IMG/VR virus record: IMGVR_UViG_3300005805_000051
Location: 32,001 to 96,000 of that record
DNA: 64,000 bases
From: a virus
Direction: 5' to 3' (one strand)
Shown: in pieces, positions 30,100 to 48,798 of the stretch
Numbering within the stretch: the first letter of the stretch is position 1
Layout: each line of letters opens with the position of its first letter
Notes under the pieces: generated by a model
What the model saw: only the letters and a program-made list of their open reading frames with translations
Databases searched by the model: none
What the model was told of the DNA's origin: nothing
Program-made: the position numbers and the translations under genes

Positions 30100-30138
30100 A
30101 AAAAGAAAAACGCCGGTTTTGGGTCAGCGGAGCCGGCG
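30100..30138 (-). terminator. Intrinsic terminator downstream of the tmRNA
   Basis: CGCCGG..CCGGCG stem followed by TTTTTCTTTTT on the minus strand. Confidence 0.65.
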
Positions 30139-30139
30139 C

Positions 30140-30400
30140 GCTGTGATGATCACTTCTGTTGCAAGGTGGAACATCGAACCCCTGACTCATGAATGAGTCA
30201 AGTAGCTGCTAGGCAGCCATTGCGAACTGATAGGTGTCAGTTGCGAGTGTCTCTGTTTAACGTCAGCGACTTGACGATAGCCTCCATAGCTTTCTGCCGA
30301 TACTCTGTCGAATCCAAGTCACCCCCGTAAGTTTGAATGGTGGAGGTGGGCGGGTTCGAACCGCCGTCCAAAATATCCGAACGCTACTTCATCAGCTACA
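30140..30400 (-). ncRNA. ssrA: tmRNA, circularly permuted two-piece form; tag (A)ATDTYQFAMAA
   Basis: Acceptor piece ends GGCGGTTCGAACCCGCCCACCTCCACCA (to 30338). An 11-nt spacer precedes the coding piece GGGGGTGACTTGGATTCGAC (from 30326). G3-U70 pair present; tag ORF at 30244-30209. The outer ends are approximate. Confidence 0.9.
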
Positions 30401-30405
30401 TTCTG

Positions 30406-30411
30406 TATTTA
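30406..30411 (-). promoter_or_regulatory. T4-type late promoter box (TAAATA) driving the tmRNA
   Basis: Same (A/C)TAAATA box at 2145, 10359, 16067, 22772(+), 25691(+), 31180(+), 33483, 36282, 38737, 40724, 41422, 41746, 44188, 48763, 55979, 57586(+), 58597, 59941 and 62349, each just upstream of a gene start. Confidence 0.75.
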
Positions 30412-31158
30412 TGTCAACACCGTCTGTTGTACCTCGGCAAACCGTGCCACGCGTTCTTCTAGCAACGGGCGCCAGAGTTCAGCCGAAGATTCTTGCCAAA
30501 CCAACAGTTTCGGGCACAACTGTACAATCACGATGGTATCTATAGTACCACGACCCAACCATTCTGTCAACGCATCCGCATAAAATGTGGCTTGCAAGGC
30601 ATAGTTAGTCACCCGATTGTCCGTTTTGGGTTTTTTGCCAGTTTTAAAATCAATCACCGCAAGACGACCATCGGTCAGTTCCGCACAAATGTCCATGCGT
30701 CCAGCCACTTTATGACGCGTAGACATGATGCGTGACTCGGACAATAATACCGTGCGAATCCGCGCATTCAGCAGCGTTCCGATCGCCGCGGCCATCGGTG
30801 GGTCAGATGGGTCTTTCAAATATTTCCACAGAGGCTGCCCCGTGATGAAGGATTCGCAGAAATCATGCCAACGGGTACCGTTTCCCGCGGCGGTTTTGGT
30901 GACTCGATCCGCTTCCACTGCCCCGACGCGTTTCCGCCACTTACGAAGTGCCGATTGCCCTTCATCATCAGTCGCACTCAGCAGTGTCGTAATCGACGGA
31001 TAGCGTTCTCCTTCGCTCGTATACCAACGTTTCCCGTCGTGATAGGTTTCACTCAAGGTGACGCGCAACGGTTGAGGGTCGTAGGTAATCGTCGACGCAG
31101 GAATGTCAGCCGCATTCCAAAACGGATATTCATGAACATGCCATTCCTGTTGTGTCAT
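30409..31158 (-). CDS. PD-(D/E)XK exonuclease
   Basis: YPSITTLL, WRKRVG..EADR, GTRWH, AGRMD..VIDFKT, YALQATFYA. Confidence 0.85.
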   Translation of the reverse strand: MTQQEWHVHEYPFWNAADIPASTITYDPQPLRVTLSETYHDGKRWYTSEGERYPSITTLLSATDDEGQSALRKWRKRVGAVEADRVTKTAAGNGTRWHDFCESFITGQPLWKYLKDPSDPPMAAAIGTLLNARIRTVLLSESRIMSTRHKVAGRMDICAELTDGRLAVIDFKTGKKPKTDNRVTNYALQATFYADALTEWLGRGTIDTIVIVQLCPKLLVWQESSAELWRPLLEERVARFAEVQQTVLT

Positions 31159-31630: not shown

Positions 31631-33163
31631 TTAGTTCACGCGACCGACGAACAGTCGAGCGCGATCCCACGAAACGTTAAACACCTCACCAGCTTTCTTA
31701 TTGACGGGAGTCGCATCACCAGTTGCAGGATGATAGAAGGTACCACTGAAATTTCGAGCGGCACGAAACTGGTGTGTGCCGGGTTCTCCGTAGAACAGAT
31801 AGACACACCGACCATCACTGTGCTGCGCGCCGTCAACACGCACTTCGTGCGAAATGCCTTGATCAACGATACGTAGTTGACTCCATGTGTTGCCAGAGTG
31901 ATGTAGCGTAGTATATGTCATGACATCCTTCGGTAGTAACGCGCATATCTTCGGGGTGTTCCAGAAACCATTCTCCACTTGCAAGCCCTTGTCAATGGAG
32001 ACTCCTTCACCGGAGAACCACACATAGGACTGTCGTGCAATCAAACTCTGAAGCGCCAGCGCGACAATCGCTTCATCGTTCAGCTCCTGCTTGTTCGTGG
32101 TAACAGACACCAGATCGCCACTCCCGTTCGGTTCTGACTGAATTCCCAACTTACGCTTGGGTTTGCCTTCGTAGGGAATGGAAAAGATGTGACGAATCTT
32201 ATCCCAAAAATGACCGTCGCGACTGCCATGCACATCATAGCAATCAGCGGGATCAATAGAGAAGGCATCCAGCTCATGTGCTTCCTCGGTGCGCGGTGAG
32301 GTGAGCGTCAGCAGTGCGGTGCCTCCTGCACTCTTATACGCTTGCACAAACTGCGCGAGACGCACCGGGTCAGGCTCGCCGGTTTGCCATGCTTCGTTGC
32401 CCCCATCGAAGAACGCATAGACATACCCCGTACTGTCAACCGCACGACCCACTTCCGCGAGTTTTACGGCAAACGCTTTGCGGTCGGTCATATTATCACC
32501 AAGAGTGCCAATATCACCTTGCGATACGACGAGTCGCAACTTTCGGTCGACGCACTCTTGCACAAAGTCGCGCCACTCCGTCCAATAGTTCGGGGTGCTA
32601 CCGGGATTTACGGTGCGGCCGCCGTGCATCTTCTCCCAATACGACCCACTGAGTAGTGTCCAGACACGCACACCGTGATACCCGGCTTGTGCGAGCAAAT
32701 TTAGCTGTCCTCGAACGCGATCTCGGTCGCGTGTCCATAACGCAAATAAATCCCCGGCATGAGCAAACAACGGTAACACGGTACCGGTGTCATCCACGAA
32801 GGCGTTCTGCTCAATGCGGAGACGACCCACCAGCGGCCGCTCGACCACCGGAATCTCTCGCGAAAGTGTCACGGGAATCTGTGTGTTTTGCGTCAGCAAA
32901 ATTTTGCTATGCACGGCCACATACTTGTCGCACTCTACTGCATAGTAGACATCGCCTTGATTGACTTCAATCGCCGCATAACCATTCTCATCGGTGGCGC
33001 GCCGCAGTTCTTCATTGAGACGGAAGGTTGCCCCCACCAGTGGCGCGCCGTCGGTATCGGTTACCACTACCGCAATCGTCGCACGAGGAATAGAAGGCTC
33101 AGGAGTCGGTTGGGGATCGGGACGACCAAAGAGCCACTGAAACAATGACGAGAGAATAGACAT
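31631..33163 (-). CDS. Ig-like (carboxypeptidase-regulatory) domain fused to a glycoside hydrolase-like TIM barrel
   Basis: VVVTDTDGAPLVGAT..TDENGYA; GYHGVRVW, NEAWQ, DVHGSR, QSEP (clan-A-like acid/base and nucleophile positions). Confidence 0.5.
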   Translation of the reverse strand: MSILSSLFQWLFGRPDPQPTPEPSIPRATIAVVVTDTDGAPLVGATFRLNEELRRATDENGYAAIEVNQGDVYYAVECDKYVAVHSKILLTQNTQIPVTLSREIPVVERPLVGRLRIEQNAFVDDTGTVLPLFAHAGDLFALWTRDRDRVRGQLNLLAQAGYHGVRVWTLLSGSYWEKMHGGRTVNPGSTPNYWTEWRDFVQECVDRKLRLVVSQGDIGTLGDNMTDRKAFAVKLAEVGRAVDSTGYVYAFFDGGNEAWQTGEPDPVRLAQFVQAYKSAGGTALLTLTSPRTEEAHELDAFSIDPADCYDVHGSRDGHFWDKIRHIFSIPYEGKPKRKLGIQSEPNGSGDLVSVTTNKQELNDEAIVALALQSLIARQSYVWFSGEGVSIDKGLQVENGFWNTPKICALLPKDVMTYTTLHHSGNTWSQLRIVDQGISHEVRVDGAQHSDGRCVYLFYGEPGTHQFRAARNFSGTFYHPATGDATPVNKKAGEVFNVSWDRARLFVGRVN

Positions 33164-33485: not shown

Positions 33486-34139
33486 TTAGGCGTCCGGAAA
33501 TCGCGCCGCATGCAGCGCCAAACGCGTTTCCGCGAGGGCATGCACCGTGGGGTCGAGTTCTGTACCCAGATAGCACCGACCGGTGTCTCGCGCCGCGATT
33601 GCGGTCGTGCCGCTCCCCATAAACGGGTCATACACAATAGACTCAGGGGGCGTATAGTTACGAATACAGCGCACCGGCACCATCACTGGCATCCCATAGG
33701 TATACTGCTCATAGTGCCCATACCCATCGTTCCAGACATCCGGCGCAAACGACGCGTCTTGTGATTGTCGCGCCGCGCGCCACACGCCCGTGCTAAAGGT
33801 CATGACATTCCCGTAGGTCAATCGGAACAGATTGATTTTATCGCTCTTAACCCAAATCTTGTGACTCCGCAGCGTATAGCCGAGGTCGGTCATTGCATGA
33901 TACAACGCCAGATGTTTCGGCACAATCGTGCTGCGATGTTTGCGATCGGTGAATGCAACCGTAATCAGGCCCAGTCGCGGACGAAACAACACAAACAACT
34001 CTGACAAAAATGTTTGATACGCGGTCAGATCGACCGTGCTGCCGACTTCATCAAAATCAGGCGGACTTGTAAACACATAGTCATAGGTGAGGGTTGGCGC
34101 CAGTGTTCGTGCATCCCCACATACAATCGTATTCATCAT
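33486..34139 (-). CDS. Beta-class amino DNA methyltransferase (N4-C/N6-A family)
   Basis: VFTSPPDF precedes YDPFMGSGTTA..GTELD; SD GGAGAGG. Confidence 0.8.
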   Translation of the reverse strand: MMNTIVCGDARTLAPTLTYDYVFTSPPDFDEVGSTVDLTAYQTFLSELFVLFRPRLGLITVAFTDRKHRSTIVPKHLALYHAMTDLGYTLRSHKIWVKSDKINLFRLTYGNVMTFSTGVWRAARQSQDASFAPDVWNDGYGHYEQYTYGMPVMVPVRCIRNYTPPESIVYDPFMGSGTTAIAARDTGRCYLGTELDPTVHALAETRLALHAARFPDA

Positions 34140-34189
34140 ACAGGCACACCTCTCCCATTCTTTATAATATCTATTATAATTTTTATAAG

Positions 34190-34512
34190 ATACTTGCGGG
34201 GATGTTTGGAGAGACACCTCTCCCTTGCGGGATTACAGGTGTCTCTCCCTTGCGTATGGACGCCTCGGATCGACTCAGGATGCGATGTAACGTGGCGGTT
34301 AGCCGGTACCACAACGCACCGTATGGTGCGACATCTGCCTCTCACCCTCGCGGGTCTAACGGGAGGTCATCATCCCCATCCTGACGAACATGATGACCGC
34401 GTAGGTCGTGAGGTTCCACGTGCCCTACATCGTTGGTCGTACGGACCGATTCTCGCGAATCGGCGTATTCGCTGCACCGCGACATTCAAGCGCGGAAACG
34501 AATACTGACTGT
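34190..34512 (-). ncRNA. Unassigned highly structured non-coding element (ncRNA, leader or origin transcript)
   Basis: At least seven consecutive stems, three closed by GNRA loops on the minus strand; promoter directly upstream; no credible ORF. Confidence 0.6.
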
Positions 34513-34518
34513 CCACTC

Positions 34519-34547
34519 AGTATAGCGAGTGGGGTCGTGCGCGTCAA
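34519..34547 (-). promoter_or_regulatory. Sigma70-type promoter TTGACG-N17-TATACT
   Basis: -35 at 34547-34542, -10 at 34524-34519, 17-nt spacer. Confidence 0.8.
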
Positions 34548-38699: not shown

Positions 38700-38746
38700 A
38701 CCATGCATCCTTTATGTGAGGAATAGTCCTCGCTGGTATTTAGGTG

Positions 38747-48720: not shown

Positions 48721-48798
48721 AGACTGCTCCTGTTATGCGGGTCGACCCCGCGATGCTGTTGGTATTTAGGAAAACACAGAAGCGCGGAAAGACGGAGA

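Follow-up and report, generated by a model that had tools for sequence, protein, structure and literature searches.

What occupies the 412-nt gap that separates two minus-strand genes in the genome of an uncultured T4-like phage? The window that we analyzed is a stretch of 64,000 nucleotides, bases 32001-96000 of a 108,995-bp IMG/VR contig from a T4-like (Kyanoviridae-like) phage, estimated to be 60% complete. The gap lies between the gene for a DUF6267 protein and an N6/N4 DNA methyltransferase gene, and the genes around it are all co-oriented (Table 1). An earlier note, made from the letters of this DNA alone, had read a promoter, a row of hairpins and an AT-rich palindrome in the gap and had offered three explanations, namely an undescribed ncRNA, perhaps partnered with the adjacent ligase-like protein, a regulatory leader, or a T4-style replication origin. 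The element is conserved, strand-specific, structured and non-coding, and it has a conserved promoter. We believe that it is a new, clade-restricted, independently transcribed structured ncRNA that probably acts in trans, and we put the probability of this reading at about 0.6.

Table 1. Features of the RNA locus and its surroundings, in window coordinates.
Feature	Position	Strand	Remarks
DUF6267 gene, 429 aa	34552-35841	minus	upstream neighbor, putatively RNA-ligase-like
-35 hexamer TTGACG	34542..34547	minus	begins 4 nt after the DUF6267 stop codon
-10 hexamer TATACT	34519..34524	minus	17-nt spacer
Whole RNA gene	~34193-34512	minus	roughly 320-330 nt; conserved core of ~225 nt (P4-P10)
Variable 5' domain	34444-34512	minus	two hairpins in the window, three in most relatives
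5'-domain hairpin 1	34465-34505	minus	inside the variable domain
5'-domain hairpin 2	34446-34463	minus	GCGA loop
Junction CAAnGAUG	~34428-34435	minus	invariant
P4/P4a	34400-34429	minus	loop with invariant CCU; invariant bulged A; double changes in 4/6 P4 pairs
P5, 13-bp hairpin	34365-34398	minus	97.8% of cells paired; 10/13 pairs changed on both sides
P6	34338-34363	minus	invariant CCCG(U/C)U...GAGAGG(C); encloses P6i
P6i hairpin	34344-34355	minus	GCGA loop (window); relatives have mostly GNRA loops
Pseudoknot	34356-34360 (GUUAG) with 34298-34302 (CUAAC, P9 loop)	minus	
Three-way region	34259-34335	minus	closed by P7; holds P8, P9 and the joining strand
P7, long-range	34331-34335 with 34259-34263	minus	double changes in 2/5 pairs
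P8	34315-34330	minus	double changes in 5/5 pairs
P9	34292-34313	minus	invariant GGUA...AACCGCC; double changes in 3/6 pairs
Joining strand, ~28 nt	34264-34291	minus	
P10, long terminal hairpin	34208-34248	minus	12-bp arms, inner GCAA loop
3' tail	34193-34207	minus	ends in the conserved CCGCAA, the last conserved stretch; putative 3' end
AT-rich spacer	34150-34192	minus	followed by the methyltransferase Shine-Dalgarno and ATG (34139); not counted as RNA
Palindrome TTATAATA-tc-TATTATAA	34162-34179		inside the AT-rich tract
11-mer GGGAGAGGTGT, two copies	34146-34156 and 34214-34224		
Methyltransferase gene (N6/N4 DNA), 217 aa	33486-34139	minus	ATG at 34139; downstream neighbor
Permuted tmRNA	30118-30430	minus	Rfam RF04321, 93.9 bits; ARAGORN tag ATDTYQFAMAA; just after the PDDEXK gene

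Homologues and genomic context

Close relatives of the DUF6267 protein were aligned (alignment A1), and JGI metagenome contigs were then scanned. Homologues of the element were sought with nhmmer after a protein-anchored scan and with three independent DNA-pattern scans, and all of these routes converged on one set. Using the element itself, nhmmer and blastn gave a match in all nine downstream-extending loci with a DUF6267 protein 46-93% identical to that of the window (L005, L007-L014), and three pattern scans of IMG/VR DNA built on different invariant motifs added L092, L095, L097, L113, L142 and L156, with zero new members from the third scan of viral contigs. This gave 13 further distinct homologues, or 14 sequences, from at least 10 metagenome datasets comprising metagenome and viral contigs. 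The set was assembled without P0002 and P0004-P0007 (Logan/ENA protein relatives, 53-88% identical) and lacks RNA copies of intermediate distance; its 14 sequences represent about 8-9 lineages of a single clade. Between lineages, the RNA core is 62-82% identical, against 59-63% for the flanking coding DNA.

Outside this clade, the element was not found. Distant DUF6267 loci in IMG/VR have the gene with no gap behind it, and blastn searches of 50,697 GenBank phage records with the locus and with the L095 RNA returned nothing, as did a 25-bit pattern fitting all 14 members when run against 185,579 prokaryote genomes (one per species). Searched with a covariance model of the core (R1), the contig of the phage itself gives one match (126 bits), and five complete Kyanoviridae-like genomes and 74 more distant DUF6267 loci (453 kb) give none. 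The RNA is limited to one phage clade. The nearest cultured carriers of DUF6267 are Kyanoviridae, including cyanomyophages, Pelagibacter phage HTVC008M and Methylophilales phage Melnitz, at an identity of 36% or less.

All 14 loci share a constant gene order, Hsp20-(Dps)-DUF6267-RNA-(MTase)-Zn-ribbon-PDDEXK. Only in the window and in L005 (2357-2839) does a methyltransferase gene separate the RNA from the FmdB zinc-ribbon gene, and this gene looks like a recent insertion; in the other 12 loci the zinc-ribbon gene comes directly after the RNA. The window also has a 510-aa ORF with a weak CarboxypepD_reg domain (31631-33163, minus strand) between the zinc-ribbon and PDDEXK genes, which in relatives are ~100-300 nt apart, and tblastn of this ORF against all 13 relatives gave zero matches. 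Along with a permuted two-piece tmRNA, the contig carries six tRNA genes. The tmRNA of the relative L013 (4830-5028, 67.8 bits) is arranged as in the window, and in relatives the distance from the new RNA to the tmRNA is only ~1.2 kb.

Some loci show signs of rearrangement. In L007 and L009, the core of the RNA is 82% identical to that of the window (alignment A3, described below), and the 5' domain is 73% identical to the L095 type and only 51% identical to the window, a mosaic pattern that suggests recombination within the RNA gene. In the same two loci, the FmdB zinc-ribbon ORF (~2361 in L009) has an apparent ATT/GTT start after a GGAGGTGA Shine-Dalgarno sequence instead of ATG, so a non-canonical start codon may be used. 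At L041 (1273-1662), Dps and the first 130 residues of DUF6267 match at 82-87% and then the similarity ends, which would mean either that the assembly is chimeric or that a recombination breakpoint lies within the DUF6267 gene; as similarity is lost there, L041 is uninformative as a family member.

Promoter and transcript ends

The promoter TTGACG-17-TATACT (34547-34519) agrees with the consensus at 10 of 12 positions, and the pattern TTGAC-N16-19-TATNCT occurs at only this one site in the 64-kb window. In all 14 homologues the -10 hexamer is TATACT, TATATACT or TATGCT, with 5-7 nt between it and ACAaUCAG, the conserved 5' end. The -35 hexamer is kept at the same place as TTGAC(G/C/A) in eight of them, and in eight the -10 region reads TGCTATATACT, which is of the extended -10 type. 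A sigma-70-type promoter, with either a TTGAC-type -35 or an extended -10, is kept in 14/14 homologues, and its distance to this 5' end is fixed. The near-consensus promoter that the earlier note had recognized stands. The inverted repeat CCACTC/GAGTGG, inside which that note had placed the -10, is present in the window and conserved nowhere beyond L005.

From the geometry of the promoter, transcription would start at ~34512, with ACAGUCAG as the first letters. No intrinsic terminator was found after the RNA on the minus strand, and no antisense promoter was found at the RNA locus.

Structure and covariation

The 14 sequences were aligned with MAFFT (alignment A3; 403 columns, 66% mean column identity), and the alignment was not fitted to any structure. 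RNAalifold predicted 69 pairs, 36 of them with compensatory changes. The structure that we name here has 68 pairs in 13 helices, which gives 940 cells on A3, and 96.2% of these cells hold standard pairs, compared with 81.6 ± 0.7% after shuffling (none of 500 shuffles reached the observed value) and 30-54% when the partners are slid. Pairs changed on both sides number 35 of 68, compared with 23.3 ± 2.4 in shuffles (0/500) and 3-14 when slid, and the covariation score is 0.474, compared with 0.200 and 0.05-0.11, respectively; because the 14 rows are about 8-9 related lineages, the per-cell counts are inflated and the shuffle controls overstate significance, a problem that does not affect the slid controls or the numerous pairs in which three or four pair types occur. 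The covariation among viral-metagenome homologues that the earlier note had proposed to test is present.

By double changes, P5, P8, P4 and P9 are the strongest helices (Table 1). Individual pairs show the same behavior, such as pair 126-133 of P4a, which is C-G in nine sequences, G-C in four and U-A in one. Two invariant tandem U-G wobble pairs sit beside the loop of P5. There are zero double changes in P10 and P6, and the 3' strand of P10, GGGAGAGGUGUC, is invariant in 14/14, with its pairs kept by one-sided (G-U) changes only.

Seven hairpins had been listed in the earlier note, and all of them are found where it had placed them. Six are helices kept in the 14 homologues, five of these with compensatory changes; the sixth is P10, with its one-sided changes, and the seventh, 34465-34505, falls in the variable 5' domain. 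That reading had missed helix P9, the long-range helix P7 and the pseudoknot.

In the pseudoknot, GUURN, just after the invariant CCC of P6, forms 5 bp with the NYAAC loop of P9. Its cells are paired at 94.3%, and the terminal pair is G-C in eight sequences, U-A in three, A-U in two and other in one. RNAalifold extends P6 instead. We favor the pseudoknot because the closing pair of P6i (columns 189-204) covaries cleanly, with A-U in five sequences, G-C in nine and zero mismatches. With 14 related sequences, noise was too high for a comparison of all columns against all to yield further covarying pairs. The 3' strand of P3 might instead pair with the CAAnGAUG junction, an option that the data allow but do not support. 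On our reading of A3, the 5' strand of P7 appears to have two possible partners in both sequence types, the 3' strand of P7 and parts of the joining strand, and these pairings could be alternative, switch-like conformations.

The fold of the minus strand is more stable than shuffles by z = -4.9 over 377 nt, and over 320 nt the minus strand has z = -3.9 and the plus strand z = -3.2. The alignment has 117 G-U cells, with three invariant U-G pairs among them, and on the opposite strand the structure is only 84.9% paired, which argues that the folded molecule is the minus-strand transcript. This assignment agrees with the promoter and with the GNRA loops.

Coding potential and known RNA families

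No conserved reading frame was found in the element. Most of the 14 members have stops in every frame on both strands, variable columns are spread over the codon positions as 73/72/75 with no 3-periodicity, and the indels are not multiples of three. Local ORFs had no match in Pfam or PHROG. Together with the compensatory changes in 35-36 pairs, this is what we would expect of a structured ncRNA gene.

Applied to the whole window at their gathering thresholds, the 4227 covariance models of Rfam 15 identified the tmRNA and tRNAs and nothing else. With E relaxed to 10, scans of the element in the window, of L095 and of five relatives gave only unrelated, non-recurring chance matches (snoRNA, TCV_H5, miRNA), and no description of this RNA was found in the literature on DUF6267 or in surveys of structured RNAs in phages. 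Segments of 16S rRNA, a T-box sequence, hammerhead and twister cores, a k-turn and boxA were considered and set aside as short matches at chance level or not conserved in the family. With a conserved promoter, covariation, no ORF and no match to any known Rfam family, the proposal of an undescribed ncRNA is strongly supported.

The AT-rich spacer

Between the RNA and the next gene lies an AT-rich spacer, and the palindrome described by the earlier note is indeed there. The sequence of the spacer and the palindrome are unconserved, being absent even from L005, which is 91% identical. The same note had pointed out that GGGAGAGGTGT occurs both in the last stem and as the Shine-Dalgarno sequence of the methyltransferase; both copies are present in the window, and the second is not conserved, since L005 reads GGAAGAAGTGT there. 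The CCACTC/GAGTGG repeat, the palindrome and the second GGGAGAGGTGT copy are not conserved and therefore carry no evidence of function.

What recurs in the spacer is a short box, MTAAATAH, which is found in 12/12 of the relatives without the methyltransferase, 49-146 nt before the start of the zinc-ribbon gene. In the window it occurs 18 times compared with 8.7 expected, a 2-fold excess, and 15 of the 18 sites are on the minus (coding) strand; examples are at 30405-30412, 38736-38743 and 48762-48769. By analogy, MTAAATAH fits a candidate T4-type late promoter of this phage. The phage shows no enrichment of the canonical T4 box, TATAAATA (1 site in the window). On the simplest reading, the AT-rich spacer is a promoter plus untranslated spacer for the next gene and not an unwinding element.

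A probable trans-acting RNA or a possible leader

We propose that ~34193-34512 on the minus strand is the gene for a previously undescribed ncRNA with its own sigma-70-type promoter (34547-34519), and that the host polymerase would transcribe it early in infection, by analogy with T4-like phages. The predicted architecture comprises a variable 5' hairpin domain and a core with a three-way junction, mostly GNRA-capped hairpins, a 5-bp pseudoknot that ties an internal loop to a hairpin loop, and many invariant unpaired bases. The RNA would act in trans as a folded molecule, for example as a protein-binding scaffold or decoy, and a catalytic or self-associating RNA is a possible alternative role in trans. 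We rank a trans-acting ncRNA first because the fold is kept whichever gene follows, because a variable spacer with a separate promoter-like box comes after it, because there is no expression platform, and because RNAs with partner-binding or catalytic roles are typically of this size and have this many invariant unpaired bases. Trans action is thus chosen by exclusion, as most likely, over control of the adjacent gene.

The alternative of control in cis, to which we give a minor share of the probability, is that an early transcript into the downstream genes (zinc-ribbon, PDDEXK nuclease and, in relatives, tmRNA) begins with the RNA as its 5' leader. Because there is no intrinsic terminator before the next same-strand gene, the transcript may run into the co-oriented genes that come next, and it would then also be compatible with a long leader or with a precursor that is processed. 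The fold might then, with similarly modest likelihood, control read-through, stability or processing, perhaps via alternative pairings such as those of the 5' strand of P7. However, neither an expression platform nor a constant downstream gene, as a riboswitch or attenuator would have, was found. The next gene is the methyltransferase in the window and L005 and the zinc-ribbon gene in the 12 others, and it is reached only after 60-160 nt of unconserved AT-rich spacer that contains a separate TAAATA box of late type. We found neither a terminator/antiterminator pair nor conserved base pairing with the Shine-Dalgarno sequence of the next gene, and the Rfam matches, even at E = 10, include no riboswitch, T-box or leader family. 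At ~330 nt with a pseudoknot, the RNA is also far larger than known phage antitermination RNAs. These results weaken the regulatory leader of the earlier note, and we continue to prefer an RNA that acts in trans.

We hold it improbable that the RNA is more than an orphan motif and represents a new functional class of large RNA, whether a ribozyme, a self-assembler through GUUAG/CUAAC, or a cofactor or substrate of DUF6267, which a clade of T4-like phages would use early in infection to take over or protect host RNA metabolism.

The DUF6267 neighbor

The protein encoded just upstream is annotated as hypothetical and is common in Kyanoviridae. In alignment A1, KxDG, QGD, HEGFV and VKLVD are invariant, which places the KxDG, EGF and VK motifs in invariant columns. 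By sequence, the protein had no match in the PDB. Its AlphaFold model (pLDDT 70) aligns best to RNA ligases, with Z of 6.1-7.9 and rmsd of 4.2-4.9 over 169-188 residues, and next to DNA ligases; a Z below 8 on a model of this pLDDT can only suggest a ligase fold. The closest structures include REL1 (Z 7.9, rmsd 4.5, 184 aligned residues), NgrRnl (Z 7.5, rmsd 4.3, 184 aligned) and T4 Rnl2 (Z 6.6, rmsd 4.2, 173 aligned), with further RNA-ligase matches to T4 Rnl1 and Trl1, and the Foldseek matches to ligases are weak (E-values of 0.08-0.5). The model is suggestive of an uncharacterized RNA-ligase-like nucleotidyltransferase.

Could the RNA serve this protein as a dedicated partner or substrate, the two forming an RNP or a ligase-guide pair? 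In every member it directly follows DUF6267, and the motifs and the resemblance of the model to RNA ligases would fit such a role. However, hundreds of Kyanoviridae and related phages have DUF6267 without the RNA, the RNA is present at none of the 74 more distant DUF6267 loci, and the two genes apparently have different promoter types. As most phages with DUF6267 do without the RNA, an obligatory partnership is unlikely, and we regard a dedicated one as doubtful. The ligase-like character that the earlier note had seen in the neighbor holds up as a structural suggestion; the partnership it had drawn from it fares less well.

Unlikely readings: a replication origin or no RNA gene

The third proposal of the earlier note, a T4-style origin, would make the element a replication-origin transcript, that is, a promoter-driven RNA that forms a persistent RNA-DNA hybrid at the AT tract and primes or opens the origin. 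The locus has a strong promoter and, ~320 nt on, a nearly pure A/T tract with a palindrome; the RNA has purine-rich runs (GGGAGAGG); and the structured pre-primer ColE1 RNA II is a precedent for selection on the fold of such an RNA. In T4 origins, however, the unwinding element directly follows the promoter, and here a conserved unwinding element in that position is missing, the tract being ~320 nt away and its sequence and palindrome differing even from L005. The MTAAATAH box, with its coding-strand bias and its presence in all 12 relatives, fits an ordinary late promoter in the spacer, and it is the pairing of the RNA that is under selection. The GC-skew check suggested by the earlier note likewise gave no sign of an origin, as the cumulative skew runs straight through the region with no turn at 34 kb (weak evidence in a T4-like genome), and no antisense promoter was found. 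We therefore consider an origin very unlikely.

We give a negligible likelihood to the reading that there is no RNA gene here at all and that the element is instead a small protein gene (on one strand or the other), a gene in decay or a leftover of a mobile element whose folding is fortuitous. In its favor, the window, L005, L097 and the L008 group have open antisense frames of 102-112 codons, and, compared with cultured Kyanoviridae, the element is an insertion specific to its clade. However, these frames differ in phase (frame 2 in the window, frame 0 in L008) and are interrupted in 8/14 members, the element has neither codon periodicity nor flanking terminal repeats, and coding cannot explain the covariation.

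Comparison with known systems

The phages that carry this RNA belong to an abundant but uncultured group of T4-like phages, in which it lies beside an RNA-ligase-like gene and near the phage tmRNA. It would add a new family to RNA databases and explain a 400-nt gap in such phage genomes, and as a defined molecule of ~330 nt it is open to direct synthesis and testing.

Several known systems share features with it. Like riboswitch and T-box leaders and the put RNA of HK022, it is a structured RNA right after a promoter, with co-oriented downstream genes and no intervening terminator. In contrast to these, it has no expression platform or family match and its downstream gene varies, and it is several times larger than put RNA. 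ColE1 RNA II and the T4 origins oriF and oriG resemble it in the sequence of promoter, transcript and AT-rich DNA tract, and RNA II is a structured pre-primer; here, however, the AT tract is unconserved, looks like the spacer of a late promoter and does not adjoin the promoter of the RNA, and neither a skew signal nor an antisense regulator was found.

The pRNA of phi29 is, like the new RNA, phage-encoded, promoter-driven and structured, and it works in trans. It uses loop-loop complementarity, and GUUAG/CUAAC could in principle pair between molecules as well, although we have modelled it as intramolecular. pRNA is about 120-174 nt long and belongs to phi29-like podoviruses, whereas the RNA described here is from a T4-like phage and has no Rfam match, and we know of no T4-like packaging motor that uses RNA.

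GOLLD and ROOL are large, many-helix, pseudoknotted RNAs that were found by covariation in environmental and phage DNA, often share genomes with tRNA or tmRNA genes, and had no known function at discovery, all of which recalls the present case. They differ in size, roughly 580-800 nt compared with ~330 nt, and the new RNA matches neither Rfam model in sequence or structure and is confined to one narrow T4-like clade. Large many-helix pseudoknotted RNAs with dozens of invariant unpaired bases are rare, and past cases have been ribozymes, riboswitches or unusual assemblies.
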